This document shows, piece by piece, positions 4,628-37,244 of a stretch of 44,039 nucleotides of DNA. Each line of letters starts with the position of its first letter. Position 1 is the stretch's first letter. The notes beneath the pieces are model-generated. The model saw only the letters and a program-made list of their open reading frames with translations, made no database searches and was not told the DNA's origin. This DNA comes from a phage: NCBI GenBank assembly GCA_030821775.1, contig GCA_030821775.1_4700.1; one strand, given 5' to 3'. A program made the translations under genes and the position numbers.

Positions 4628-4825
4628 TTAATCGTCGGTTTCTTCTTCGTCGTCACCGTAAAGCTCCTCGACTTTCTCTTTAATTGCCTCGATAGACAGG
4701 CCAAGCTCTTCGGCCTCTGCAAGAATAGTGTAAGGTGGAGTCATGCCGCATGAGTAACTTTCAAAGATAGCCTCTGCTACCTCAACGGCACGAGTTGCCT
4801 TCATGGAATCAAATACTTGTGTCAT
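4628..4825 (-). CDS. Small acidic hypothetical protein
   Basis: Track ORF 4628..4879 trimmed to the first ATG (MTQVFD...); C-terminus is acidic (GDDEEETDD); upstream of the GNAT gene. Confidence 0.35.
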   Translation of the reverse strand: MTQVFDSMKATRAVEVAEAIFESYSCGMTPPYTILAEAEELGLSIEAIKEKVEELYGDDEEETDD

Positions 4826-5243
4826 GTTTCCTCCATTTACCTGCGAGCACAAGGCCCACATATGAACGAGACATACCAAGTATATCGGAGATACGTTGTT
4901 GTGTGAGGCCTTCTTCTCTTAATTTAAATACTTTAGCTATAGTTTCATTATTAAATTTGCATACTCCAGATTTCTCTCCACTTGCAGTTCTTCCCTTACG
5001 CTGCCTGTCTTCCATGTTCTCTTTATGTGAACCTAATACAAGGTGTAAAGGGTTTATGCAGCGAGGATTGTCACAAGTGTGCATGATGACCTTGCCTTTT
5101 ATATCAGATAGACTGACATTATTATAAGAACAGTAAGCAGCACGGTGAGCAGGGGTTGTTTTACCTTCAAACTTCACAGAGCCATAACCTTTATGGTTTC
5201 CCTTTTGCCGATGATCAATACACATCAGGTACTTCCTTATCAT
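4809..5243 (-). CDS. HNH homing endonuclease with C-terminal HTH
   Basis: 144-aa ORF with HNH-type residues (GYG...H...CDNPRCINPLHL) and a C-terminal HTH (LTQQRISDILGMSRSYV); overlaps the 3' end of the ligase gene. Confidence 0.7.
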   Translation of the reverse strand: MIRKYLMCIDHRQKGNHKGYGSVKFEGKTTPAHRAAYCSYNNVSLSDIKGKVIMHTCDNPRCINPLHLVLGSHKENMEDRQRKGRTASGEKSGVCKFNNETIAKVFKLREEGLTQQRISDILGMSRSYVGLVLAGKWRKHDTSI

Positions 5244-6162: not shown

Positions 6163-6350
6163 TTCACCTCCTTCATCACACCTTTGACTATTGCCTCTTT
6201 AAAGTGCGCTAAGTTAGAACCATAGGCACTTAAATACCACGTTGCACCTCCATCGTTAGAGGTCAATACAAAACCGCGAGGACTTACTTTATATAAGTTA
6301 CCGAAGTACCCTCTATACAGTTTACCTTCCATATCAAATATCCTCATCAA
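6159..6350 (-). CDS. Hypothetical protein
   Basis: 63-aa ORF whose end is translationally coupled to the ligase start. Confidence 0.35.
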   Translation of the reverse strand: MMRIFDMEGKLYRGYFGNLYKVSPRGFVLTSNDGGATWYLSAYGSNLAHFKEAIVKGVMKEVK

Positions 6351-6804
6351 TACATTCGTGACGATGCTTCTGGAATAACTCTTTGTAGTAGTCTGCTTTC
6401 TTCAGATCTTCTTCAGTGTTGAATTTCTTACCTGCACGCAGACGATACTTCAAAGCGTTACCCATGCAATACCCAGCGAATTGCTTCTCTGTCATGCTAC
6501 GGGCAATGATAGTGATTGCTTCTACACCTTCGAAGAACTCGTAGTGTTTAGGCTTAGTAACCATATTGTTGTCCAACATGTTGGACTCTTCACCTTGCAA
6601 TGGGTTAACAACTTTGAAATAAGGTGCATACCATTCTCGTTTCTCAACACCATCTAACATGATAGAGTTATAATTAAGTTCCGCATGAGTCACTTTGAAC
6701 ACTCCATCTGGTTTCTTGTTTAAACTTGCACAAAGGCTATTCCAGTTGGCGTCTCGGTAAGCTGCACGGCGTACTACGTATTCTCCAATATTGATCTTTG
6801 ACAT
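6334..6804 (-). CDS. Conserved phage hypothetical protein
   Basis: Track ORF 6334..6819; the start is more likely the ATG at 6804, which has a GGAGG SD. No recognisable catalytic motif. Confidence 0.5.
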   Translation of the reverse strand: MSKINIGEYVVRRAAYRDANWNSLCASLNKKPDGVFKVTHAELNYNSIMLDGVEKREWYAPYFKVVNPLQGEESNMLDNNMVTKPKHYEFFEGVEAITIIARSMTEKQFAGYCMGNALKYRLRAGKKFNTEEDLKKADYYKELFQKHRHECIDEDI

Positions 6805-6859
6805 AATTAAATCCTCCATTCACTATACAATCAAGGCAAGCTAATACCTGCCCTTTGTT

Positions 6860-9551: not shown

Positions 9552-9989
9552 TTATTCGACGTGACTCCACGCCTTGCGACTTCTAACCTTGTTAATCAAA
9601 TCTTTAGAGACACCTAGATTTTCTGCTAATGTCTTTGCAGATAGACTACAAGAACGTATGTACTTAACCTTATCAACATCTAACTTCTGGCTAGACCTTT
9701 TGGTTCTAATAGAAACATCAATCATGTTCTGGCTACGAGAACCCCAGCTTAAGTGATCAGGGTTACAGTACATCTTATTGTCGCAAGAATGAAGTACATC
9801 TTTTAAATCAGACTTGCCATGAAACACTTCACAGCTAACTCGGTGTACTGTTTCATTTCTACCTCCACCTGTAGCTATGTTTCCATAGCCATGAGAGCCA
9901 ACAGACTTCTGCCATATCCAGCACCCGTTACTGTCAACTCCCACGTTATCCTTGATCTTCTCTATGAGTGCATCGCGGCTTAGTCTCAT
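9552..9989 (-). CDS. HNH homing endonuclease
   Basis: 145-aa ORF with the canonical HNH_3-type pattern (GCWIW...GYG...HR...C.N..C.NPDHL). Confidence 0.8.
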   Translation of the reverse strand: MRLSRDALIEKIKDNVGVDSNGCWIWQKSVGSHGYGNIATGGGRNETVHRVSCEVFHGKSDLKDVLHSCDNKMYCNPDHLSWGSRSQNMIDVSIRTKRSSQKLDVDKVKYIRSCSLSAKTLAENLGVSKDLINKVRSRKAWSHVE

Positions 9990-9994
9990 TTAAC

Positions 9995-10369
9995 TCAAAA
10001 TTCCTCCTCTTCGCTTACCTGAACTTCCGGTGCAGCTACTTCTTCTACTGCCTGAGCTTCAGCTTCTTCAGCAGCCTTAACTTCTTTCACCGGCTTACCA
10101 GCAGCAATCCAATCCAGATACTCAGCTACGATATTAGCCTTACCGATCTGAGCTTTGTCAGCCTGCTCAGGGAAGCAAGCACGAGCGAACTCCAGACCAG
10201 CAGCGAAGTTACCCATGCTGTCAATCTTAGCCTGAGCTCCTTCACGAGTATCATAAGCCTTAGTGCCAGCTACCAGTTTGTTGGCTTCATCGACGATAAC
10301 GAAAGACTCAACGGATACCAGATCAGCACCTTTAACAACACGGTTTACGATAGTTTCGATAGTGAACAT
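9995..10369 (-). CDS. Hypothetical protein with acidic C-terminal tail ending in Phe
   Basis: Track ORF 9995..10399; probable start at the ATG at 10369 (AAGGAG SD). C-terminus ...VQVSEEEEF resembles the acidic aromatic tails of SSB-type proteins. Confidence 0.5.
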   Translation of the reverse strand: MFTIETIVNRVVKGADLVSVESFVIVDEANKLVAGTKAYDTREGAQAKIDSMGNFAAGLEFARACFPEQADKAQIGKANIVAEYLDWIAAGKPVKEVKAAEEAEAQAVEEVAAPEVQVSEEEEF

Positions 10370-10423
10370 ATTTAAATTCTCCTTTGTTAATTGTGGCATT
10401 ATCGCCGATTAAAATTCTCCCTT

Positions 10424-10441
10424 CTATAGTGTCCCCTAAAT
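10424..10441 (-). promoter_or_regulatory. SP6-type phage promoter
   Basis: Plus CTATAGTGTCCCCTAAAT (one mismatch to consensus) in the intergenic gap. Confidence 0.75.
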
Positions 10442-10456
10442 AGAGGACACCAATTT

Positions 10457-10472
10457 GTCCAACGCGTTGGAC
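10457..10472. repeat. Conserved palindrome, copy P1 (GTCCAACGCGTTGGAC)
   Basis: Perfect inverted repeat, member of the 8-copy TGTCCAAC-NN-GTTGGACA family; lies between the stop of gene 10473..10691 and the promoter at 10424. Confidence 0.8.
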
Positions 10473-10691
10473 TTACAGAACTGTGCTCACCTGCGCAATG
10501 TCGTGCGCCGGAAGTGACACGCCGTGGCGTTTACCGGTCGCGGGGTCACTGTAGTTCACCACATGCTGACCCTCGCGCCAGATATAGTGCAGGTTTGCGT
10601 ATGTATCCCCTTCAGAGAATGAGTGAAAAGTGTTACCGCCAAGCGTTGTGATGCCTTTCTTGCAGTGCAGGGTTACAATTTGTACTTTCAT
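10473..10691 (-). CDS. Hypothetical protein
   Basis: 72-aa ORF with ATG and AGGAGG SD. Confidence 0.5.
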   Translation of the reverse strand: MKVQIVTLHCKKGITTLGGNTFHSFSEGDTYANLHYIWREGQHVVNYSDPATGKRHGVSLPAHDIAQVSTVL

Positions 10692-10702
10692 TTAACCTCC
10701 TA

Positions 10703-11509
10703 TTAATATTCCGCGTCCTCGTCCATTTCTGGGGCTTCTACGTTCGTAGCTTCAGGTACTTCCTGCGGGACAGAAGCACCTGTGTCCAAAGGTTTGCGGT
10801 CTTCTGGAGTCGCGTCACTGTCTTTCTTCTTGGCCTTCTTCCACTCAGCATCGGCAGCGCGAGCCTCGGCGATAATGGCTTCAACATGAGAACCAGCAAC
10901 GGACAGGTTCTTACCGCGTGGTGTTTCGTTCAGCAGGTACTGACGGACAAGATGAGCAGGAATGCTGTCGATGATTCCGCGGGTCAGCTTGTCGAAGGTG
11001 ATGTGGCCTGTCATGGTTAGACCTTCTTCTTCCACCTGAGCCAGCACCAGCTTCTTGAGTTTATCAGGCATACCGCCGAAGCCTTTCCAGTTAACATACT
11101 TGAAAGTGCCATCTTCGTTCTTGCCACCCTTATCATCGCCAACCATGCTAACAGTCATGCACTCGCCGATGAAGTCATCGAAGCCACCAAGCAATTCTTT
11201 AGGGTCAACTGCATTCAGGAATTTGGTCAGCGTTGCCTTGTCACCAGACTTGAGCGGCACAGCCATCCACTGTTCCATGCGAGAACCATCCTCGTTCTTG
11301 TCACCGTCACCCATCAGGATAACCTTAACAAGAACAAAGTTAGCAGGCTTCTTCACCTCGGTAGTGTTACCTTTCTTGAAGATGTCTTGGAAGGAACCAA
11401 CGTGAATGATGCCAGAGATAACTGCCTCGTGATCACCAACTTCGGGATTCTTAAACACACCACCAGTAGCAGCAGCAACCTCAGCACCAAAATCAAAATT
11501 ACGAGCCAT
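10703..11509 (-). CDS. Putative ssDNA-binding protein (acidic C-terminal tail)
   Basis: Track ORF 10703..11557; ATG at 11509 has an AGGAGG SD. C-terminus ...EAPEMDEDAEY is acidic with a terminal aromatic residue, as in T7 gp2.5 and bacterial SSB; functional call is inference. Confidence 0.4.
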   Translation of the reverse strand: MARNFDFGAEVAAATGGVFKNPEVGDHEAVISGIIHVGSFQDIFKKGNTTEVKKPANFVLVKVILMGDGDKNEDGSRMEQWMAVPLKSGDKATLTKFLNAVDPKELLGGFDDFIGECMTVSMVGDDKGGKNEDGTFKYVNWKGFGGMPDKLKKLVLAQVEEEGLTMTGHITFDKLTRGIIDSIPAHLVRQYLLNETPRGKNLSVAGSHVEAIIAEARAADAEWKKAKKKDSDATPEDRKPLDTGASVPQEVPEATNVEAPEMDEDAEY

Positions 11510-11702
11510 TAATTTATTCCTCCTGTTGTTTGTTAGCTTTGTACTGAGCACAAGCATGTACTCACTAGAAAGCCCGATACTATATCGGGTTGTGCAAGAT
11601 GCACAAGAGGTTCAACACTTTACAATCATAGGACGTGCTTAGGATTTACGCTCACTGAGCACCTTGGATTTACTGTCTCTGACAAACCCACGTCCTATTG
11701 TT

Positions 11703-12223: not shown

Positions 12224-14797
12224 TTAGTGAGTCTCTTTCCAGCTTGCGCCAATCTTATATTCACCTGCCATCGGACAGCGCATCTTAAGATACTGACCAG
12301 CCCAAGTCATGGCGTCGGCAATGATATGCCCTGCACGGTGATAACGACGCTGGCAATGCAATACACCAGCATCAGCATCAACGCTAACGAGATTTGCAGC
12401 AGACCACATACGTCCCTCAGAATCCACATGAACACGTTTCTCCTCTGCATCGAACACTGCTTTCACAGCAGCCTTCTCTGTTTCAAATCCTTCTAAGGTG
12501 AAAGGTAGGTCATAGTTAAGATACAAGACCTCCTCTTCAGGGACTTCCATCTGTATTTCATCGTGCACGTTAGCTACACCACAAGGGTTTCCCATAGCAT
12601 CCAAGGCTACACCCTCCTTGCGCATCACTGCAAATGCCTTGACCAGTGCGTATTTCATACACAAAGAGCCAGTCATCTGGAGCAATACGTTAAGCATAGT
12701 GTGTTCTTTAAGTTCACCACCGGACATACGGATGCGACCCCAATGCCCATCAGGTGCTTGCAGGTAGCCAAACTTGTTACCTTGTGCGATAACATTCTCG
12801 CGAAGACGTGCAAGAGACGGTAGTTCAATCTCGAATCTTGCCACAACTTCCTTCATTTCATCCTCAGTGACACCGCATACTGCTGCAAGGTTAGCTATAC
12901 CAGAGCCATAGAGGAAGGCATATATAAACGTCTTCGCCATGTCACGCTTAGGAAGACCAGCCTTCATCTGGTTATGCGTATGGATGTCACCATGAAGTAC
13001 AATCTCTTGGTATTCGGGGTCATTCATGAAGTGAGACAGTACACGCAGTTCAAGACCTGCACCATCACAACCAAGGATTAGCTTGCCTTTCCCTGCTATG
13101 AATAAATCACGTAGAGGATACAAGCCACGGGCAGGAATATTAACCACGTTGCGATGACGCATACGGAACGTAGAAGTGCCAATACTAATAGCAACAGCTG
13201 GCACACGCCACTCTCCGTCATCTTTGTCAGACGTAGGCCAACATCCATACCTCGCATAGTATTGCTGCGCATTGATTCCTAGCTCCTTATTAAATGCTAC
13301 AGGTATAAGGCCGCGACACTTTCGTACACCAGCCTGCGAGGGCCACGCCCCCTTCTGATTGAAGGCTTCAACGTCACCACGGTTGAGGATCTGACCACGA
13401 CGGGATACGAGTATGTACCATGCAGCGATACCCAAGCACCAATCAGGGACTGTTTTACCTTCACGTGTGGCTCTTTCTTGCCATAAAGTGATGGACTTCT
13501 CATTTATCTTACCACTCCACGGCTTAGGTAATACACCATGTTCATCAATGTAGGCCTGTTCTGTATCATTAAACTCAACACCTCTCCATCCGAACCCATA
13601 AAGCACTTGTTTAACAGTCTCACGGTTTCCCAAGGGAATGTCTTCAAACGTGACGGGAGAGTAAGCGCCAATGTGCTTGATGCTAGGTGTGTCATTCTTG
13701 TTACCACGGAGGTGAGGGAAGTCTTTCTTGACAGTAGCAGACCAATCTCCAGACTTAGTGGTGACAGCCCAAACCGTCTGCCGATCTCCGCGCCGTTCGG
13801 CATGGATAAAAGCCTCGCTAGACAACGTGACTCCAATTCCGTGAAGTCTACTATACTCATTTGCTTTATCAACTTGCGCCTCCTTCTCTTGAGCTTTGAA
13901 TGGTTTAGACTTGATACGCATAGGCATGTGTGGACGAAAGGCTGCGACTGTCTCGTCAATCTTGGCGTCCAGTTCTTCGCATCGCGCTAACGCCTTGTCG
14001 ATGTCCAGACGGAACCCGCGTTCGGCCTGACGGCTCATCTCCAGCGCCACAATGGACTCCATGTGGAAGGCTGTCTCAATGCCCAAGCCAGTGCGTTTAT
14101 TCACGCCACGGCGTTTGTGTTCCATCCATTCCCCGTTAAAGAGCCAGAGGAACAGGTCACGACCGATTGCCACGTCCTCACGTACACGGTGAACCATGTG
14201 GTCAGTTAGTTTAGACCAGTCCTCGTTCTCCGGTTTATAGCGGCCTATACGGATGCCGTGCGCCTCAATTGAGTGAGGGGCAACGTTACCCATACCTTTG
14301 GCGTATGCTTGCGGAGGGAGGCGTCTATCGGGGTTTAACAGGCGGCTCATCACCAGCGTGTCCATGACTCGCACAGGACACAGGTCGGCACGAAGCCTGC
14401 CCTTGCCGCGCTTCTCGGTGTAGTTAAAGCCTTTCCATATAGTAGGGAATGCTTTCTCAAAGAGAAGCCCGTCATACCCTAGGAAGTTCTGTGACACGAT
14501 AGCTTCACAGTGCTTCAGGAAGTTAACACCGTCAACCAAGTCACCGTCTTGGTGGCCTTCCCATTCCTTCATACGTTCTCTTGCTTCATGGTCACGCATC
14601 TCATATGGGTCAAAGAAGAGAAACTCCTCGGTAGTAAGCAAGTCCATGCAGCAAATGATATGCACATCTTCACGGTGTCCATATCGGATAGCATCAAGGA
14701 GGCCTTTACTTTCGGCGTCCATGACGAGGATGCGGCCTTCTGCCTCCTTCTTCCAATCAATAATCTTCATACATTGCCTCTGTTTCGTAGTAGTCAT
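12224..14797 (-). CDS. DNA polymerase (family A, T7 gp5-like)
   Basis: 857-aa ORF in the expected position after primase/helicase; true start may be the ATG at 14770 (GAGG SD). Confidence 0.85.
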   Translation of the reverse strand: MTTTKQRQCMKIIDWKKEAEGRILVMDAESKGLLDAIRYGHREDVHIICCMDLLTTEEFLFFDPYEMRDHEARERMKEWEGHQDGDLVDGVNFLKHCEAIVSQNFLGYDGLLFEKAFPTIWKGFNYTEKRGKGRLRADLCPVRVMDTLVMSRLLNPDRRLPPQAYAKGMGNVAPHSIEAHGIRIGRYKPENEDWSKLTDHMVHRVREDVAIGRDLFLWLFNGEWMEHKRRGVNKRTGLGIETAFHMESIVALEMSRQAERGFRLDIDKALARCEELDAKIDETVAAFRPHMPMRIKSKPFKAQEKEAQVDKANEYSRLHGIGVTLSSEAFIHAERRGDRQTVWAVTTKSGDWSATVKKDFPHLRGNKNDTPSIKHIGAYSPVTFEDIPLGNRETVKQVLYGFGWRGVEFNDTEQAYIDEHGVLPKPWSGKINEKSITLWQERATREGKTVPDWCLGIAAWYILVSRRGQILNRGDVEAFNQKGAWPSQAGVRKCRGLIPVAFNKELGINAQQYYARYGCWPTSDKDDGEWRVPAVAISIGTSTFRMRHRNVVNIPARGLYPLRDLFIAGKGKLILGCDGAGLELRVLSHFMNDPEYQEIVLHGDIHTHNQMKAGLPKRDMAKTFIYAFLYGSGIANLAAVCGVTEDEMKEVVARFEIELPSLARLRENVIAQGNKFGYLQAPDGHWGRIRMSGGELKEHTMLNVLLQMTGSLCMKYALVKAFAVMRKEGVALDAMGNPCGVANVHDEIQMEVPEEEVLYLNYDLPFTLEGFETEKAAVKAVFDAEEKRVHVDSEGRMWSAANLVSVDADAGVLHCQRRYHRAGHIIADAMTWAGQYLKMRCPMAGEYKIGASWKETH

Positions 14798-14864
14798 CTG
14801 AACGTTCGGGTTTTGGATTCATTGAGTCATAGTAGTCCCAATCAGAATCATAATCACGTGGCAT
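14757..14864 (-). CDS. Small acidic Asp/Tyr-rich ORF (35 aa)
   Basis: Hand-translated MPRDYDSDWDYYDSMNPKPERSDDYYETEAMYEDY with GGAGG SD; stop overlaps the probable DNA polymerase start. Below the track size cutoff. Confidence 0.3.
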   Translation of the reverse strand: MPRDYDSDWDYYDSMNPKPERSDDYYETEAMYEDY

Positions 14865-14894
14865 AATGCACCTCCAATCAATATGATAAAAGGC

Positions 14895-14912
14895 TGTCCA
14901 ACACGTTGGACA
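14895..14912. repeat. Conserved palindrome, copy P2 (TGTCCAACACGTTGGACA)
   Basis: Perfect 18-bp palindrome with complementary AAGG/CCTT flanks, in the gap upstream of the DNA polymerase gene. Confidence 0.8.
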
Positions 14913-15346: not shown

Positions 15347-16030
15347 TTAGATTTTCACGTAGGTTTCTTCAGTAACGATAGGGAGGTACAGTAATTCTTC
15401 ACCATTCAAGATGTGAAGACCTTTCAATCCTTGCTTAATGATAATATCTTCTATGGTTTTAGCAAAATTGGTATTAGCTACACGACGAGGTGTGCCATGC
15501 TCTGTGATTGCATGGTCAACATCATGATTCGCACAGGTACATTAGGGTGCATCATGGCTTCACCAATCTTCACCATAGCTTGTCCGGTGGATTTACCAAG
15601 AGCACGAGTGTTAAACTGTGTAACACCTAATGCAGTGCCACACAGCTTAATCATTTCACTTTGGGTCTTACCAGTGATTACATTGCGGCGCTCTTTCTTG
15701 AGTGTGGTCTTTGCTTTGCCACATGCCTCTGCTAAAGTTTGAATGCCACCACTATAGAGGTGTGCTGTAATATCACTTTCTGCATCTGGCGAGCGCACTT
15801 GTCGCAAATCTCATCATGTATGCACTTACATTGGTTGTTTACCTCTACAATCTTTTCAAGGTATTTATGTGCGTTCTTCTTGTTATAGAAAGCCTTAATA
15901 CCATTATCATATACTACATGATACAGGTTCTCACTTACATTATGCACTACACCATGACAACGATAGAGACGTGATGTTTATTGATGTTACGAACATAATC
16001 ACCTACATTCAATACTAATTTATACATAAT
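15347..16030 (-). pseudogene. Frameshift-disrupted gene, possibly a degenerate HTH-containing homing endonuclease
   Basis: Four consecutive minus-strand ORF segments in different frames (about 27 aa, 71 aa, 109 aa, 64 aa) tile this ~680-bp region; includes a Cys cluster (CKCIHDEICDKC) and an HTH-like stretch (TQSEMIKLCGTALGVTQFNTRAL). Confidence 0.4.
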
Positions 16031-16064: not shown

Positions 16065-16082
16065 TGTCCAACATATTGGACA
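16065..16082. repeat. Conserved palindrome, copy P3 (TGTCCAACATATTGGACA)
   Basis: Perfect palindrome ~17 nt downstream of the primase/helicase stop. Confidence 0.8.
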
Positions 16083-16098
16083 AGCCCTGATAAGCACA

Positions 16099-18090
16099 CT
16101 AGAACTCCTGCTCTTCTTCGAAGTTACCTTGTTCTATAGTGTCCCCTAAATCAGCAGGCACCTCTTGCTGCTTAGGTACACCTGTATCAAAGCTCTTGGT
16201 TCGTGCTTGTGGTTCCCTCAATCTACCGGTAGCAAGGTCTCCTTTAAGCATAACCTTAGTTCCTGTGAAGATACCTTGGTCACGGTCTTTGACACATGAG
16301 ATGTACGTGGTAGTCCTTTCATCAAGCGTTTCAGCTCTTGTGTTACGCTCAATCCCCAATGCGTAAGATGCCCAGAATCCGATAGCTCCTGAGCCTCGGA
16401 AGTCAGAAAGGATAACCTCGCCACCTTCCTCGTGTTGGGTGCGGTTCCCCGCAGGACGTGTAAGGTGTGATACAAGGAATATAGTAACTGGGTGTCGGTC
16501 TTTGATAGTACCAATCCGCTTGACGCATTCATCAAGTGCACCAACCTTCCCACCATATGCTCTTTCATCTAATTTAATCCCAGTTAAGTTATCAATAAAG
16601 ATATTCTGAATCCCCATAGCTTCAAACTCTAAGCAGGTCTGCTCAATCTTCTCCATTGAGTAGTCACCTTCGAGGTCAGCTACAAAGAACTTACCCGTAT
16701 CAGCCACGTAGTCGATAGCTTCAGCCGCTTCCTCATCGGTATAGTCCAGCACCTCGCGGTAGCCATCCTCTTGCGGGTCGTTGGTTGGCGGCAACTCAAT
16801 GCGCTTATCAATCCACTTCCCGATGAATGCACGGGCAACCTTCTTGGTTGGGTCTTCTGTAGAGATAATGCCTACAGACTCGCCGTGCTCTTCGATGAGG
16901 TGCTTAACCACTTCACGAAGGAACTCAGTCTTACCTACACCGGAGCCAGCACCGACGATGATTAGCTGGTGCTTACGGATACCAAGCGTTACCTTGTTCA
17001 GCTTAGGCCAAGGCCACGACAGCCCTTCTTCTGGACGTGCCTGCTTGAGTTCGTCACGCATAGACGCAACGGACTTAATCTGGCTACCGAAGACTTCCTC
17101 AGAAGACTTGGCATTAAACCAAGCATCGACAAACTCTTTGGCCTTACCCGCCATCAAAGACTTGTTAGCATCCTTGCAACCACTTGGATACTCAAGGATG
17201 TAGGATTTGCCGGGAAACAGGCGAGCCGCTTGTTGGTTCTGCTTCTGCCCTACCTCGTCGCCATCGAATCCCCAGATAATCTTCTTGAATTGGGCGATGT
17301 GTTCACGGTTCTGCACAATCTCTTCAAGGCAAGATTCACCTTTGTTAACAGACCACACATGGTAAGGTTGCCCTTCCCACTTAGTACCCTTGGCAGAATC
17401 AAGGAGCATTTGCTGGGCTGCTAATGCATCCAGTTCACCACCCACGATAAGCAAGATATCTTTTCTTCTTCCCTTGTCCAACGTGTTGGACAGGGTATTC
17501 ATACCGAAAAGATCTTGTGTACCAAAGAGTTTACCTAGGTGTCCGAACTTAAAATCCTTCGGCAACGTCCGGCATTTTGCTCCAACAAGCACCCCCTTTT
17601 CATATCGTGGATAATAGTGACGGTTGACTCTTCCCTCTTCATCGTGTCCAACGCGCACATCGTACATTGCTGCGATGTCACCTCGAATGTGACGGGATAC
17701 AAGGTTCTTACGCTTAAGCGTGAGGAACCATTCAACATCAAGTTTCCACTCTGTTTCTTGGTCTGCCCTTTCTTGCTCATTCATAACCTCCCAACGGTCT
17801 TTCATACGCATACCACCAAGGGCGATGGCGCGTAGTTTAGGGTCGCTTATCTTCCCTTCTTTCTCCATCTCTTTGAATTGAGAAGGTGTGTATTTGATGT
17901 TGCCGGTAATAGGCAACTCGGTTATTTCGATGCCACCTTCCGGCTTATGGTAATAAGGTCTGCCATTATCATGGAAGTGACCACGGTTACAGTAGCCAGC
18001 ACCATCCTCGAATATCATAAGGTGGTTGCCTGATTTATCGTGTCCATTCTTCTGGCATTGAGGGCACGGAATGTTATTAATAATAGCCAT
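16099..18090 (-). CDS. DNA primase/helicase (T7 gp4-like)
   Basis: 663-aa ORF with an N-terminal Cys4 zinc ribbon (CPQC...C..GH) and a Walker A P-loop (GAGSGVGKTE) in the C-terminal helicase half. Confidence 0.9.
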   Translation of the reverse strand: MAIINNIPCPQCQKNGHDKSGNHLMIFEDGAGYCNRGHFHDNGRPYYHKPEGGIEITELPITGNIKYTPSQFKEMEKEGKISDPKLRAIALGGMRMKDRWEVMNEQERADQETEWKLDVEWFLTLKRKNLVSRHIRGDIAAMYDVRVGHDEEGRVNRHYYPRYEKGVLVGAKCRTLPKDFKFGHLGKLFGTQDLFGMNTLSNTLDKGRRKDILLIVGGELDALAAQQMLLDSAKGTKWEGQPYHVWSVNKGESCLEEIVQNREHIAQFKKIIWGFDGDEVGQKQNQQAARLFPGKSYILEYPSGCKDANKSLMAGKAKEFVDAWFNAKSSEEVFGSQIKSVASMRDELKQARPEEGLSWPWPKLNKVTLGIRKHQLIIVGAGSGVGKTEFLREVVKHLIEEHGESVGIISTEDPTKKVARAFIGKWIDKRIELPPTNDPQEDGYREVLDYTDEEAAEAIDYVADTGKFFVADLEGDYSMEKIEQTCLEFEAMGIQNIFIDNLTGIKLDERAYGGKVGALDECVKRIGTIKDRHPVTIFLVSHLTRPAGNRTQHEEGGEVILSDFRGSGAIGFWASYALGIERNTRAETLDERTTTYISCVKDRDQGIFTGTKVMLKGDLATGRLREPQARTKSFDTGVPKQQEVPADLGDTIEQGNFEEEQEF
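16134..16151 (-). promoter_or_regulatory. SP6-type phage promoter inside the 3' end of the primase/helicase gene
   Basis: Plus CTATAGTGTCCCCTAAAT located within the last ~17 codons of the gene. Confidence 0.7.
17475..17492. repeat. Conserved palindrome, copy P4, inside the primase/helicase coding sequence
   Basis: Perfect palindrome TGTCCAACGTGTTGGACA; encodes ...TLSNTLDKG... about 200 codons into the gene. Confidence 0.8.
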
Positions 18091-18238: not shown

Positions 18239-18269
18239 GGTTAAATCTCCAAAGTAAGTTAGTCTTGTT

Positions 18270-18287
18270 CAATAGTGTCACCTAAAT
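18270..18287 (-). promoter_or_regulatory. SP6-type phage promoter (variant, downstream member of tandem pair)
   Basis: Plus CAATAGTGTCACCTAAAT, one substitution from consensus, with palindrome P5 directly upstream. Confidence 0.65.
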
Positions 18288-18289
18288 AG

Positions 18290-18305
18290 CCCAACACGTT
18301 GGACA
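18290..18305. repeat. Conserved palindrome, copy P5 (imperfect)
   Basis: CCCAACACGTTGGACA, one-sided degenerate copy abutting the promoter at 18270. Confidence 0.6.
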
Positions 18306-18432
18306 ACCTAGGTCTTCCCTTTATGTATAAGGAAAGGAAGTAATAGGAAGTAACCCAGTGTTACCTATGTAACCTATATTACCTACTACTTCCTATTACT
18401 ACCTATGACTTTCCGTCTCCGACGGGTTGGTC

Positions 18433-18450
18433 CTATAGTGTCTCCTAAAT
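18433..18450 (-). promoter_or_regulatory. SP6-type phage promoter (upstream member of tandem pair)
   Basis: Plus CTATAGTGTCTCCTAAAT; ~30 nt downstream of the RNAP terminator, with palindrome P6 directly upstream. Confidence 0.7.
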
Positions 18451-18458
18451 GCGCATCT

Positions 18459-18475
18459 TGTCCAACACGTTGGAC
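18459..18475. repeat. Conserved palindrome, copy P6
   Basis: TGTCCAACACGTTGGAC between the RNAP terminator and the promoter at 18433. Confidence 0.8.
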
Positions 18476-18502
18476 TTGTTAATAAAATGTTACAGGTAAT
18501 AG

Positions 18503-18542: not shown

Positions 18543-21161
18543 TTAAGCAAAACAGTAGTCGCTATCCATGATTTCGTTCAGGTCAAAGCTGCCTTGCTCT
18601 GGCACTTCGATGCCAGTATCAACCATCCAGCGGTCTTCGTGCTCATCAAGCAGTTTCTGCAAGGCGTTCCCTTCTGAGTACATGCCAACCATTTCTGATT
18701 TCAGTGCATGACGCAGCTTAGCGGTATTGTCTGCGTGAGTACCAAAGGAGTCGTGAATCACTGCAATACTCGTCACCCCTTCATCAACCAGATGACAGAC
18801 GGTCAGAATCAGGTGGCTTGCGTCATGACCATGAACGAAGTTAGGCGCTGCTGCTCCCATCATAGCGGTTTCATCCACTACATCAGTTTCAACTTGCAGA
18901 CTCATTTTGATGTCACCCATCAGGCAGGTGCGCACACGGAGCATCTCGGTCGCCATAATTTTCTGCTTCAGGATGAAGCCAGTTGGCAGTGGGTATTCCA
19001 ACCCTTCATTGCGCTTAGCTGCAAAGCGAGCCAACTTGCGAATCATCTGCATCGCCACTACCGGAGCCTTAACAACCTCAGAGATGGAAGGCCAGATGAG
19101 CGCCGTCATGTAGTTGTATGCTTTAGCCGGAGTAAGTTCACCGTTATCATCAAACGGGTGCACACGGTTCGCTGCGCGCCCTTCTGCCACCGCCATTTGT
19201 GCCTCTTTCTCTTCCAAATCGACGATATAGTCAATCACAGAATCACGGCAGGTGATGCGAGTAGAGCCGTAAGGCAGCGTCATTACTGGTTTCTTGGTCA
19301 GGCCACGGGTAATGCCTACGCTATCCCATGCGCTAGCCATAGCTCGAAGGTCAGAGCCGGAGAGGGTTAGGCTTCCGCTCGTGAAGGTCGTCCCTTCTTC
19401 GGCATCCATATAGAGCACATTTTTAGAAATGACCACCTGTGCAACCGCGCCGTAAATATCCTGCGGAGCGTCGGACGGCTTCAGGTTTACAGCTTTAGCG
19501 CCCACCTCATCGCGTAACATAGCGGAGTAATGCTGAATGCCGGAGCAAGAGCCATCTTGGTGGACTGGCAGGTGAGTTTCGAAATCGGCCTGCGTCCCTT
19601 TATCCAGTGCATCCAGATAGCGGGAGTATTCGAAGCACCAAGCAAGAAATTGGTACGGCTCATCCGCTTTAGCCCACTGTGTGAAAGTCAGCGGGTCGGC
19701 TGCAATGTCACGGCACATATCTTGGAAATCACCGTCTAACACGTTGGACTGACGTACGTCAAAGGTCTTCTTATCCCAACCCCACAGGTTAGCGCCCAGC
19801 ACGAGGAACCATTTAAGAGCTCCAGCGCTGTCAATCTTCCGCCCCTCTGTGAAGCGTAACAGAGATTTACCCAGGTCGTTAGACTGTGGGGACAGGGTGG
19901 AAGATTGAGCGTAAACACGGCTGCGGCTGTCCATCACGTAGACGAAGTAGATGGATTCAAAGGCGCTATATTTGCGAGCCTGTCCAATCATGCGAACCAC
20001 GGCGGCAGACTTGGAGCCGCGCTTTGTTTCGGCGGTGTATAGTCGCGCACACTCCCCTTTCCAGTTAATGAACGCCTGCCATTGCTCTTCTGATAGCATT
20101 TCTTTCAATTCACGACCCCGAAGATGTTGGAACTCAACCGGAACAGGGTTAGCAGGCTTGTTTTCCTTGTCAATTAGTGGCTTAAAGGACGGCACACCAT
20201 AGCCCAAATCAAGGCGGATGACGTCTTCAGCTACCGCTAAAACCTCTTTGTTAACCTGCCATTTGGTGTTTTGTAAGGCGTTAATAGCCTTGTACACCTT
20301 AGGCATTTGCTTAACAGTAAGTTTGCGAACATGCTCACGGTCGCCCTTAACCAGACGCACACGACTAGCCACCTTCTCAGTATGGAAGCCACCATTAAAC
20401 GGGGTTTTCCAAGGACGAGGAGGAACAACGCAAGGAGCATAGGCTGGGGCCAGTTGTGCTACGTGCTCTTTAAAGGCTGCAATCCATTGGCCTACAGTTT
20501 CGGAGGTTTGCAGGTAATAAATAGTTTTACCGCCAAATGAGCGCATAGCGCGAACGAACACAGGCTCACCGTTGTAGAATACGCTAGCTTCTAGTATTTC
20601 CAGCAGGGTAGTACCAATCTGCAATTGTGTATCTTTAGGCCATGCCTCCCAGCGGTCAAAGTCAGCGTCTTTAGCGGCTACAGACTTCTCAGCCACTACA
20701 GCTACATTGTGAGCGTGACGGTATGACTTGGTGCGGCTAGCCTTAAGCGATTTCTTCACTTTCTCGAAGTATTTCGCGGCGTGGCCTTCCAGCTTGCTGA
20801 AGCGCACTTGGTCTTCGATGCGCTCGGCAATGCTCATAGAAATGGCCTGCAATGTTACATCAGTGTTCAGCATATCCATAACTACCTTCATGGTAATATA
20901 GGCTGCCACCTCGTTTTCTACACACTGTAAGAAGGCTAGGGCACGAGGAGCGCGGCCTTTCTTGCCTTCGTATTCTTCTTTGTAAGCCTGAATGCCTTCA
21001 GCCATAGGCGCGATTAATTCAGACAGCAGGCGGCGATTCCATGCCGTATCTGATTCATTACCCGATGCTATTTGGCGCTGTTGGTCTGCCTCAAAGCGAC
21101 GGATCCCGCCATTAAACATTTCTTCTTCAAGCTGAAGCTGGATAGCGTGTAAGTCCTGCAT
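18543..21161 (-). CDS. Single-subunit DNA-dependent RNA polymerase, SP6-type
   Basis: 872-aa ORF with AGGAG SD; N-terminus [32 protein letters not shown]... and overall sequence match my recollection of SP6 RNAP almost residue for residue; consistent with the SP6-type promoters across the genome. Confidence 0.95.
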
Positions 21162-21224: not shown

Positions 21225-22097
21225 TCACTTAGTTAACTCTTCTACTGCCTCAGAGATTAAAGCCCATGCCTCGTGGCCTTCACCATAGCCCAGCTTAACC
21301 AGTTCGCGGCGCGCCTTGTTAACTGCGGTCTTCTTCGTTGCCTCCTCAGCGCTCAAACCTAGGCGAGCGTAGAAACAGGACGATTTGAACTGCGGCAGCA
21401 TAGGCGCGGCGCTTTTCTTGGTTTCCCGTGCGCTGGTCAGTTCTGCTATGCGGCCGTTTGCTGCGGTAAGTTGCTCGGTCAGCGTCTTTATTTGCGCCAA
21501 CAGGCTAGCCATAGCCGCGTTCTCGGTGTTCTCAGTGTTATCCAGCTTAGGCGCTGCTACCTCGGTAGTCGCTGGTGCATCTTCCCACGGTGCGGATTCG
21601 TCGCCCTCCGGTGCTATATCCTGCGGTACGCTTTGCAATGCCTCAGATTCTACAGGAGCGGCCTTCTCAGCTGGTTTTGTGGCTTCGGCTTGTGATTGGT
21701 TGGCTTCAGCCTTCACAGGCTTAGACGGCGCCACAAGCGCGTTAACGGCCTTGGTGTCTAATTCGCCGTTAGCGGCAAGTTCGGCGGCCTTATCCATGAT
21801 TGCTCTATCATCGGCAAAAGGGATAAGGGCAAGCATGGCACGCATGGCAACGCCTTTAAAACGCTCATCACCATCAAAGCAACGCGCTACGTTCATCAGG
21901 TTGTAGCATTGTGCTTTCTTGATACCGAACTCAGCTTCTACATAAGCCAGGAACTCACGCTGATTCTCAAAATCACCGCGTAACTCATTCAGGAGGGAAC
22001 CTACTTTGAGGTAAGAGGCTCCTATTGTTTCTAAGTGTGCTTTGATTTCAGCAGTTGCAGCTTCACGGACAGAAACGATGGTGTTTTCAGTAGTCAT
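21225..22097 (-). CDS. Early protein of unknown function (290 aa)
   Basis: N-terminal globular region, central Ala/Pro/Glu-rich low-complexity linker, C-terminal helical region; just upstream of RNAP and downstream of a phage promoter; no SD. Confidence 0.55.
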   Translation of the reverse strand: MTTENTIVSVREAATAEIKAHLETIGASYLKVGSLLNELRGDFENQREFLAYVEAEFGIKKAQCYNLMNVARCFDGDERFKGVAMRAMLALIPFADDRAIMDKAAELAANGELDTKAVNALVAPSKPVKAEANQSQAEATKPAEKAAPVESEALQSVPQDIAPEGDESAPWEDAPATTEVAAPKLDNTENTENAAMASLLAQIKTLTEQLTAANGRIAELTSARETKKSAAPMLPQFKSSCFYARLGLSAEEATKKTAVNKARRELVKLGYGEGHEAWALISEAVEELTK

Positions 22098-23063: not shown

Positions 23064-23288
23064 TTAGAGACTTGTCGTGATTACTTCATCGTAATCATAA
23101 TCTTCACTACCTAGATACTCAGTAATGACTTGGTTGTCATACTCAGACACTAAGGTAACTCGGTGATACTCAGTGCTGTAGTCTATCAAGTAGTGATACA
23201 CATCAACACCTACACCGGCTTGCATCATATCATCATGGAAGCGAATAGCTTCGCTAGCTGATTCAAAGAATACCTCATGTTGATACAC
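23064..23288 (-). CDS. Small acidic early protein (74 aa)
   Basis: GTG start with strong SD (GGAGGG), coupled to the upstream gene (TAGTG); ~25 percent Asp/Glu plus many Tyr. Confidence 0.5.
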   Translation of the reverse strand: MYQHEVFFESASEAIRFHDDMMQAGVGVDVYHYLIDYSTEYHRVTLVSEYDNQVITEYLGSEDYDYDEVITTSL

Positions 23289-23467
23289 TATTTACCCTCC
23301 CTCAGCTCATCTATCATGTTACGGTATTGATTAACCGTATCGGTCCAACCTTCGTTAATGAAACGGTGATACAAAGCTAGCTCATCATCTGTAAGCAATT
23401 CGTTGTTACGAATCATATAGCATAACAAGGTGAAGAGAACGGATAGTTCACGGTTGTTTAATGTCAT
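23288..23467 (-). CDS. Small early protein (first gene after host promoter)
   Basis: Track ORF 23288..23509 begins at an alternative start; the ATG at 23467 has a GAGGAA SD and gives a 59-aa product. Confidence 0.45.
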   Translation of the reverse strand: MTLNNRELSVLFTLLCYMIRNNELLTDDELALYHRFINEGWTDTVNQYRNMIDELREGK

Positions 23468-23610
23468 AGCTAATTCCTCATTCAATAAGTAATTAACCAC
23501 GGCATACACAGGTTACACTAAGCAAATTGTTAAAGAGCAATGTAGGCGCTAGTCTCTTCGTAGGCCTTACTAGCTGGCTACTAGGTGCCTCAGCACCGCC
23601 TACGTGATGC

Positions 23611-23639
23611 ATTATGCATACACTAAGATAACTTGTCAA
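23611..23639 (-). promoter_or_regulatory. Sigma70-type host promoter for early transcription
   Basis: Minus strand reads TTGACA, 17-nt spacer, CATAAT (-35 at plus 23634-23639, -10 at plus 23611-23616), ~100-140 nt upstream of the first early gene. Confidence 0.5.
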
Positions 23640-23650
23640 CACTCTTTATC

Positions 23651-23668
23651 GTCCAACATGTTAGACAA
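23651..23668. repeat. Conserved palindrome, copy P7 (imperfect)
   Basis: GTCCAACATGTTAGACAA, one mismatch in the right arm, just upstream of the -35 of the putative host promoter. Confidence 0.6.
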
Positions 23669-23789
23669 GGCAAACTAAGGCAGTTCGAGGCAGATTTCAG
23701 GTGTTCCCTACTGCATCTTATTATTCTTCTCTTTCTTTAGCGGTCTACCGACCGCGACCTATTCGCATCTTATAGCGTAGCTATGCAAT

Positions 23790-24170
23790 CACTAAGGTAA
23801 CACTAAGACAGCAATAGATAGCCACTAAGCTAGTCACTAAGGTAGCTACTAAGGAAGTGACTAAGGTATTACTCAAGGTACACGTCAGGTAGTGCAGCGA
23901 GCGATAGCGAGCAATGGCGGGCAAATGGACAGATAGCCCACGCCCACACACGCTGTCAAGCGTCCCATAAGCGCCCTAAATGGCCCTGTGCCTGCACTAA
24001 GAGGCTTCACTAAGGCAATCACCTTGTCCAACACTAAGCCCACCCATAGGCTGTCCTAGGCCGTCTACCGCGTTCCACCTTACTAGTACACGGCAAAACG
24101 AGGACGGCCCTTGTGTACCACTAAGCTAGTACATGTGCCTGCACTAGTAAACTAGTACAACCAAGCCACC
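23790..24170. repeat. Short direct-repeat arrays in the non-coding genome-terminus region
   Basis: About 12 copies of CACTAAG(G) and relatives, four copies of ACTAGTACA, GCGAGC and GGCGAG triplets, and a 13-bp direct repeat TGTGCCTGCACTA at ~23987 and ~24134; no ORF with SD on the coding strand. Confidence 0.55.
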
Positions 24171-24440
24171 CTATGGGGACATCCCGGCGAGGGCGAGGGC
24201 GAGAGAGCTGACACACGCCTATATCAAAATTTTGACTTTGGTTACTTTGTGTACATCCATAATGAATACATCAGGGCAGCCAATAGGCTACCTGCACAAG
24301 CTATAGCGATAACCTGTAGCCAATTCTTAGGGTCTGTAGGTTCATATGAAACCCAACCATCTTTCAGCATGTTACCTCCCTTGGAATACACTAAGGACAA
24401 ACCTAAGTCTGCCCTTGTTTATACTAAGATATTAACCTGC

Positions 24441-37226: not shown

Positions 37227-37244
37227 TGTCCAACATGTTAGACA
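37227..37244. repeat. Conserved palindrome, copy P8, between two internal virion protein genes
   Basis: TGTCCAACATGTTAGACA (one mismatch) with complementary AAGG/CCTT flanks, in the 66-bp gap between the two large internal virion genes. Confidence 0.7.

Follow-up and report, generated by a model that had tools for sequence, protein, structure and literature searches.

Introduction

Plasmid RK2 carries a dozen KorB operators, some of them beside promoters and some remote. KorB proteins have been described as global transcriptional regulators (PMC7022226). A similar layout is seen in the phage DNA analyzed here, a stretch of 44,039 nucleotides (GenBank assembly GCA_030821775.1, contig GCA_030821775.1_4700.1) that we call the window: as in RK2, about ten short palindromic sites are scattered over a genome of about 44–60 kb, some by promoters and others remote or within genes. 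Our subject is one of these sites, at 17475–17492, which is embedded in the primase/helicase gene (16099–18090, minus strand), together with the protein that may bind it, a homologue of SP6 gp7. This virulent T7-like phage differs from the KorB system in several respects. Its sites have 8+2(3)+8 bp, against 13 bp for KorB; gp7 has no N-terminal domain for binding cytidine triphosphate (CTP), is predicted to dimerize through a coiled coil instead of an SH3-like C-terminal domain, and has a J-domain-like C-terminus; and in the phage, binding and repression are putative.

The second comparison is with the ParB/Spo0J–parS systems. Sites of the parS type are often found within coding sequences, and the first one discovered lies inside spo0J. 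The parS consensus is TGTTNCACGTGAAACA (PMC7022226). One type of phage arm, the K1E type TGTCTCAC, is identical to the parS half-site TGTTTCAC at seven of eight positions. The phage sites have an extra centre of 2–3 bp, however, and the phage lacks the CTPase domain; no ParA partner was seen for gp7. Enterobacterial hosts have no chromosomal par system (PMC7022226), and a segregation function is implausible for a lytic phage.

Phage T7 provides two further comparisons. Its RNase III sites (R0.3, R0.5, R1.1, R1.3, R4.7, and R18.5 among them) share flanks, two stems, and comparable intergenic positions with three of the window copies, and in T7, too, R sites abut promoters (R4.7 is directly upstream of phi4.7). 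They differ in that no repeated 18-bp palindrome forms the T7 apex, and copies of that apex occur neither on their own nor within genes. The T7 4A/4B pair also depends on a nucleic-acid signal within the primase/helicase gene. That signal is a Shine-Dalgarno sequence with an ATG at codon 64, whereas the window site is at codon 200, in the primase polymerase domain, and has no conserved start.

Our proposal is that a KorB/ParB-like phage protein uses the palindromes as operators and that 17475–17492, one of these, is accommodated in a permissive linker of the primase; we regard this as moderately probable. New here would be that a virulent T7-like phage has a KorB/ParB-type protein–operator network and that the genetic code constrains its operators. 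In the literature that could be searched, we found no account of the site family or of gp7 function, and nothing relevant on palindromes, RNase III sites, or ParB-like early proteins in SP6 or K1-5; an earlier mention of the repeat is possible.

The Palindrome in the Primase/Helicase Gene

The window comes from an SP6-like phage (Molineuxvirinae). A megablast search with its primase region found 108 phage records, of which that of Salmonella phage PST_H2 (91%) was the closest; SP6, K1E, and other Molineuxvirinae came next. All genes of the window are carried on the minus strand. The primase/helicase has 663 residues, with Pfam matches to Toprim_2 at residues 218–311 and DnaB_C at residues 357–604, and its gene stands between those of the RNA polymerase (18543–21161) and the DNA polymerase (12224–14797).

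The sequence at 17475–17492 is TGTCCAACGTGTTGGACA, that is, TGTCCAAC-GT-GTTGGACA. It had been described in the initial annotation as a perfect 18-bp palindrome, but only the two 8-bp arms are perfect; the 2-bp centre (GT/AC) is not self-complementary. On the coding strand, it reads cTG TCC AAC ACG TTG GAC Aag and specifies codons 200–206, LSNTLDK. The site is therefore inside the gene and about 200 codons in, as the annotation had it, though not near the junction of the primase and helicase domains: it is about 14 residues ahead of the TOPRIM glutamate and about 110–150 codons upstream of the helicase domain. T7 gp4 can be aligned to the window primase only from residue 217 on; this residue is the TOPRIM glutamate, equivalent to T7 E157. 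The site is thus just ahead of the TOPRIM fold, in a variable linker within the primase part of the protein.

The relationship of this site to its codons was studied in the primase genes of 13 GenBank genomes and 28 IMG/VR loci, with codon statistics taken from 31 distinct genes. The site is at the same primase codon in the lineages that have a 2-bp centre and SP6- or K1E-type arms, Erwinia phages excepted. Codon 203 is the sole conserved Val column, among 28, in which all Val-bearing sequences use one codon (GTG). Asp205 is always GAC, Ser201 is only TCC or TCT, and Leu204 is only TTG or TTA; the neighbouring Thr199, Gly207, Arg208, and Arg209 use four to six synonyms each. Fourfold sites differ by 0.55–0.68 between genera, which is near saturation, yet the motif codons persist. 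When the peptide is back-translated at random with gene-specific codon usage, the five motif codons are obtained with p of about 0.009 per independent lineage. By synonymous diversity in crude stretches of five codons, the site ranks 70 of 573, which is not extreme, since the motif itself permits Y at position 5 and R at position 14; the informative measure was the usage at each single codon.

At the same position, other phages have unrelated peptides, MTAFLDK in Proteus phages, VKDVMAS in Erwinia phages, and FKDIADS in Vibrio phages. The protein alignments are ungapped there, which rules out insertion of a mobile palindromic element. From codon usage, we conclude that the in-gene palindrome is selectively maintained at the nucleotide level, and the peptide at its position is itself dispensable. 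The suggestion that the palindrome is kept in coding sequence for a function at the nucleic-acid level is thus strongly supported, both by the codons and by the switching of the site together with the palindrome type of the lineage, described below. Synonymous changes that break the palindrome in relatives would have spoken against it; the opposite was found, as relatives encoding this peptide keep the palindrome.

The function first suggested for the site was that of an internal processing or restart signal giving a helicase-only polypeptide, like T7 gp4B. The site is just before a domain boundary, as TOPRIM begins at about residue 218, and the purine-rich AAGGGA that follows it resembles the palindrome+AAGGAG+ATG arrangement at some intergenic copies in relatives. 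Another in-gene copy, in the kinase gene, has an in-frame ATG 5 nucleotides on, at the start of DUF3310, and a shorter, domain-only product is conceivable there. However, a product from the primase site would start at TOPRIM and not at the helicase domain, and the T7 4B start, past the zinc finger, is a different location. Nor is there an ATG, GTG, or TTG conserved within 60 nucleotides downstream: in 13 lineages, codons 207–216 contain no conserved start (L213 is TTG, CTG, CTC, CTT, or TTA and V216 is GTG, GTA, GTT, or GTC across relatives), and no Shine-Dalgarno sequence after the site is conserved among relatives. Given the distance from the helicase domain, the lack of a conserved start, and the lack of RNase III flanks, we consider this explanation very improbable.

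Two other candidates were set aside. Some Vectrevirus, Escherichia phage ULINTec7 among them, have an annotated phage intron with an HNH homing endonuclease that interrupts the primase/helicase gene at about codon 392. That position is not codon 200, so the palindrome is not the insertion point of the intron. A sigma-70-like promoter over the in-gene site (TGGACA-16-TATCTT, 9/12) was also rejected, its -10 element being unconserved in relatives.

The Palindrome Family of the Window

The in-gene site belongs to a family with the consensus TGTCY-NNN-(R-Y or R-N-Y)-NNN-RGACA. With up to two mismatches, the family pattern has nine matches in the window, against 0.02 expected, and none of 100 shuffles reaches nine; a tenth copy has three mismatches. 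Thus, the window holds 9–10 copies of a specific short palindromic site on one replicon, and syntenic families are present in more than 40 related loci. Isolated half-sites are dealt with below.

The primase site is not, as had been thought, the only copy inside a gene. A second in-gene copy is at 6570–6587, minus strand, within the nucleotide-kinase/DUF3310 gene (6334–6819), where it is read in the same frame as E-S-N-M-L-D-N, just before DUF3310; residues 6–161 of this T7 gp1.7-like protein align to phrog_1689. A third, degenerate copy (AGTCCAACGTGTTAGACG on the coding strand) is at 19733–19750, minus strand, in the RNA polymerase gene, where it covers codons 471–477, Q-S-N-V-L-D-G. Among relatives, the RNA polymerase palindrome (R-V-S-N-V-L-D) is conserved and follows the lineage type; K1E, the Klebsiella phages, and SP6 itself have it in decayed form.

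Four other copies, all on the minus strand, are next to promoters. There are 12–13 SP6-type promoters (ATTTAGGTGACACTATAG) in the window. The copy at 18459–18476 is 8 nucleotides upstream of the first of these after the RNA polymerase gene (18430–18450), the copy at 18288–18305 abuts the second (18267–18287), and the copy at 10456–10473 is 14 nucleotides upstream of the one at 10421–10441. At the left end, the strongest sigma-70-type early promoter (TTGACA-17-CATAAT, 23639–23611) has a copy, at 23650–23667, 10 nucleotides upstream of its -35 element. Family copies are found 0–15 nucleotides upstream of phage promoters in every lineage, though the promoter sequences differ by lineage. No SP6-type promoter follows the in-gene primase site in the manner of these promoter-adjacent copies. 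Altogether, some 3.3 kb around the primase gene contain five copies, which are thus concentrated in the region of the RNA polymerase, primase, and DNA polymerase genes, beside the first phage promoters.

The remaining three copies, also on the minus strand, each form the apex of a T7-type RNase III-like hairpin. One (16065–16082) is just past the primase stop codon, with an upper stem of 13 bp, an internal loop, and a lower stem of 11 bp (-34 to -39 kcal/mol). Another (14895–14912; CAAGGGT...GCCTTTTATCAT) is upstream of a small open reading frame (ORF) at 14797–14892, which precedes and overlaps the DNA polymerase gene. The last (37227–37244; ACTCAAGGT...GCCTTTATGAAT) is between two genes for large internal virion proteins.

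Lineage Types and Coordinated Change of the Sites

Across lineages, the positions of the family are kept while its sequence changes. Zindervirus, PP1, and Klebsiella phages have GTCCAAC-N2-GTTGGAC; Vectrevirus and Erwinia phages have GTCTCAC-N2-GTGAGAC; Proteus phages have GTCCAAC with a 3-bp centre (N3), and Vibrio and Pseudomonas phages have GTCTCAC-N3; further lineages have GTCTACA or GTCTAGT.

In Vectrevirus, all syntenic intergenic sites have TGTCTCAC-N2-GTGAGACA, and the in-gene primase copy has followed them in part. It reads TTG TCT CAC GTG TTA GAC. Its left arm has switched completely, which replaces Asn by His, position 14 is switched as well, and the single remaining change would create a TGA stop. 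Erwinia phages (loci L014 and L043) have the identical TCT CAC GTG TTA GAC solution inside the RNA polymerase gene. The peptide at that polymerase site is rewritten to VSRCET in Vibrio phage VP505, where the gene holds a perfect N3 palindrome. A fully pairing in-frame alternative (TCT AAC ... TTA) was available to the Vectrevirus in-gene copy and is unused; selection is thus apparently on the sequence of the arms, or half-sites, more than on intramolecular pairing.

Could the in-gene copy be a functionless by-product of concerted evolution, overwritten by short-patch gene conversion or template switching from intergenic copies? The peptide is free to vary, the arms are lineage-specific across all copies of a genome, and the copy is lost in some lineages. 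The AC centre of the window site on the coding strand is unique, the usual centre being GT, and a flipped conversion would give just this reverse complement; moreover, the window and PST_H2, its closest relative, differ by seven bases over palindrome codons 200–204. On the other hand, 18 bp of shared homology is very short for repeated conversion, and the copy persists at the same codon across genera with near-saturated synonymous sites. In-gene copies also recur independently in RNA polymerase, primase, kinase, and HNH genes, and the VP505 polymerase peptide is rewritten so as to hold a perfect palindrome. We judge this explanation improbable.

Host factors were also considered. Of CRP, TyrR, CytR, the LacI family, matS, and SlmA, none is known to have sites that fit; the lineage switching of the palindromes argues against a host factor.

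A Candidate Binding Protein, the SP6 gp7 Homologue

We screened for ORFs conserved in the palindrome-bearing lineages that have no T7 tblastn match (E ≤ 1e-4), and three proteins of unknown function were obtained, the homologues of gp7, gp18, and gp20. The gp18 (284 residues) and gp20 (134 residues) homologues were rejected as the trans-acting factor, as they have no DNA-binding signature; their acidic tails, which end in an aromatic residue, resemble those of replisome partners. In T7, such a tail is used to dock gp2.5 and gp4 onto the DNA polymerase. The tails are found in the gp18 homologue (10703–11557; ..DEDAEY), which is probably a single-stranded DNA-binding protein, in the gp20 homologue (9995–10399; ..SEEEEF), and in the primase/helicase (..EEEQEF).

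The gp7 homologue has 290 residues and is a member of phrog_4571, of unknown function. Its early gene (21225–22097, minus strand), which is unannotated, immediately precedes that of the RNA polymerase. The homologue was found in every palindrome-bearing lineage tested, and T7, which has no palindrome family, has no match to it at the threshold of the screen. An AlphaFold2 model from a 16-sequence alignment has a helical domain at residues 10–122 (predicted local distance difference test scores of 85–92), a disordered acidic linker at 125–187, a coiled-coil helix at 188–230, and a small C-terminal domain, which in the model is J-domain-like. The helical domain is predicted to be a ParB/KorB-type helix-turn-helix DNA-binding domain: its structure matches include SopB–DNA, P1 ParB, and VirB, and Foldseek returns the same families with weak E-values. 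No ParB-type match was found in Pfam or NCBIfam. Because the DNA-binding domain begins at about residue 10, there is no space for the N-terminal ParB domain (CTP-binding, arginine-patch), and gp7 would be ParB/KorB-like in its DNA-binding domain only and not a canonical member of the group. The disordered linker of about 60 residues would tolerate both N2 and N3 centres.

Column 66, in the helix at 61–74 (KKAQCY-x-LM) of the predicted DNA-binding domain, is the sole column of the whole protein fixed differently between the two main arm types, and it co-varies with the inner triplet of the arm. Over more than 40 loci, including distant ones retrieved with the gp7 alignment, residue 66 is N with TCCAAC arms, K with TCTCAC arms, and R with TCTACA or TCTAGT arms. 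The Vectrevirus gp7 is 75% identical to the N-type protein of the window, and thus closer to it than the N-type proteins of PP1 and Klebsiella phages are, yet it has K66 and its sites have CTCAC arms. This is the one clear case of an independent joint change of protein and sites, and such events are few overall. It is tempting to propose N66 as a candidate specificity residue.

Another possibility is that the palindromes act as single-stranded DNA hairpins or cruciforms near promoter-type origins (compare T7 phiOL and phi1.1A/B), for replisome loading or for processing by a phage endonuclease VII. Copies accompany the left-end promoter and the two promoters just past the RNA polymerase gene. 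In T7, those promoter positions are the secondary and primary origins. The cluster of five copies at the primase gene is consistent with such a role, and N2 and N3 loops would both be tolerated. Lamassu DdmABC is known to sense palindromes of T7-like phages that have formed single-stranded DNA hairpins (PMC11707656). However, 8-bp arms are short for extrusion, the in-gene copies contain mid-stem mismatches, and the covariation with gp7 residue 66 is unexplained unless gp7 is an origin-binding factor, in which case this explanation merges with that of gp7 operators. As a separate explanation, we find it quite improbable.

Recognition as DNA or as RNA

Several features speak for recognition as duplex DNA, among them the positions of copies beside phage promoters and the early promoter. 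All 165 distinct N2 copies have R-Y at the centre and all 16 N3 copies have R-N-Y, a constraint that is symmetric between strands. Outside the RNase III-type sites, mismatches of the G.U and A.C types number 16 and 12, which is no strand bias.

The alternative is that the in-gene copy folds as a hairpin in the messenger RNA, where RNase III or another RNA-binding factor would tune stability, cleavage, or ribosome transit. Part of the family does speak for RNA. The copies at 14895, 16065, and 37227 have T7 R-site flanks, ACTCAAGG...CCTTTATGA, with an upper stem, an internal loop, and a lower stem (about -31 kcal/mol for the element and -28 to -34 kcal/mol for window folds). In flanks and two-stem form, they match T7 R0.3, R0.5, R1.1, and R18.5: a T7 RNase III site reads ACTCAAGGTC...GGCCTTTAT|GATT, and the window has ACTCAAGGT, the palindrome, and GCCTTTATGAAT. 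For T7, we took the site coordinates to be those of Dunn and Studier 1983, and the sequences at those positions are from NC_001604. The design of the post-primase hairpin is kept in Proteus phages and as far as a Vibrio phage. Arm positions are Watson–Crick paired at 95% in all copy classes, with compensatory arm changes between lineages; a loop would easily take N2 or N3 centres; and G.U mismatches outnumber A.C mismatches 11:4 at the RNase III-type copies. The same 18 bp seems, then, to serve both as a DNA palindrome and as the tip of an RNase III-type RNA hairpin.

The in-gene copy is different. It has ACC and AGGGA in place of the AAGG and CCUUUAU flanks and has no lower stem, so it lacks the T7-type RNase III architecture; in RNAalifold, only a core of 5–7 pairs is conserved, with a consensus of -5.9 kcal/mol. 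A stem of 5–7 bp is too short for RNase III. An extended structure, in which AAGATCTTTTC pairs with GAAAAGAT..CTT, was rejected, since it is present in the window alone and is not conserved. Synonymous sites around the in-gene copy drift freely, and the in-gene copies of Vectrevirus and Erwinia phages accept a mid-stem C.U mismatch despite the paired in-frame alternative. The strict R-Y centre has no obvious loop rationale, and stand-alone copies show no G.U bias. The left-end copy is upstream of the first strong early promoter, about 540 nucleotides from the left end of the genome, where sense transcription is doubtful. No Rfam family was found in a scan of the whole window, and the coding strand has no intrinsic terminator at the in-gene copy, which is followed by AAGGGAAGAAGAAAAG. 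T7 itself has no palindromic TGTCY..RGACA sites and no stand-alone copies of its own RNase III apex. For the in-gene copy, therefore, an RNA hairpin is in our view unlikely, although it deserves more weight than gene conversion or a cruciform.

A Model for gp7 and Its Proposed Sites

In the model that we favour, a dimer of the gp7 homologue would bind each palindrome as a double-stranded DNA operator. The primase linker would tolerate the residues dictated by the DNA motif, S-N/H-V/T-L-D, and the in-gene copy would matter for the placement of gp7 on the genome, with no role in the primase protein. What gp7 would do once bound may be one of two things. It may control early and middle transcription, or act as a roadblock to it, which fits the presence of sites beside the early promoter and the first phage promoters as well as within the genes of the RNA polymerase and the primase. 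Alternatively, it may organize the origin region, which fits because five sites are clustered within about 3.3 kb and gp7 has a J-like domain.

A number of observations weigh against this model. The link between gp7 and the sites rests on a fold prediction, co-occurrence, and the covariation of one residue, all partly confounded by phylogeny. Two mosaic phages do not obey the correspondence of gp7 and arm types: in PST_H2, a Lys-type gp7 occurs together with palindromes of both types, three K1E-type and five SP6-type, and in Kenya-K31, where gp7 is of a single type, the copies are SP6-type but for one K1E-type palindrome that directly adjoins the ribosome-binding site of the primase gene. The primase copy is absent in the lineages with N3 spacers (Proteus and Vibrio phages) and in Erwinia phages, so it is not indispensable. 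A noncoding copy, at the left end of Vectrevirus genomes, also retains GTTAGACA, and avoidance of a stop codon is thus not the sole possible reason for the incomplete switch of the in-gene copy. Isolated half-sites are not enriched. Finally, some copies are truly used at the RNA level as well, for which the operator model has no explanation.

Other Features of the Window

The primase/helicase gene has an SP6-type promoter (ATTTAGGGGACACTATAGAAC, 16131–16151) inside the 3′ end of its coding sequence, and the post-primase hairpin follows about 48 nucleotides downstream. There are 21 copies of the heptamer CTTAGTG in the window, against 7.8 expected, a number that none of 100 shuffles reaches; 12 of the copies are clustered on the coding strand of the left-end/early region (23148–24395, minus strand), around the early promoters and the left-end palindrome. 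An apparent physical genome end is located at about 24190–24215 (TCTCTCGCCCTCGCCCTCGCCGGG, coding strand). As it is inside the window, the window would be a circularly permuted version of a linear genome with terminal repeats.

Two overlapping ORFs on the minus strand, 15478–15807 and 15732–15947 (109 and 71 residues), match positions 30–90 and 89–170 of the phrog_6703 profile. In SP6, this is the single 203-residue gene 11, which in the window is apparently frameshifted or split, unless there is a sequencing error. Two HNH endonuclease ORFs (9552–9989 and 4809–5243, minus strand) have their best matches in T7 (38%) and no K1E counterpart; they are probably free-standing homing endonucleases.

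Implications

Laboratories owe one of their standard RNA polymerases to SP6-type phages, and phages of this type (K1E, K1-5, and those of Klebsiella and Salmonella) serve in phage therapy; yet their gene 7 is annotated as hypothetical. If the link between gp7 and the sites is true, these phages have a regulatory or organizing layer that is missing from the T7 paradigm. It would also explain codons in an essential gene that cannot drift, which matters for the recoding and engineering of these phages. A caution is that the same 18 bp is reused as the apex of RNase III-type hairpins.

More tentatively, SP6-like phages and their relatives (Molineuxvirinae, Colwellvirinae, and others) might possess a KorB-like global control system that T7 lacks. 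In such a system, an early protein made up of a ParB-type DNA-binding domain, a coiled coil, and a degenerate J-domain would occupy about ten operators, located at the early host-type promoter, the first phage promoters (the origin region), the tips of RNase III hairpins, and within the RNA polymerase and primase/helicase genes. The operators within genes would serve as roadblocks or nucleation points, programmable ones, for the timing of early and middle expression or for organizing the origin, and a one-residue code (N/K/R) would retarget the whole network during speciation. We offer this as a possibility that is, for now, doubtful. Should gp7 indeed bind the palindromes, they would provide a compact natural case of protein–DNA specificity co-evolving over a set of sites, including sites that are constrained by the genetic code.

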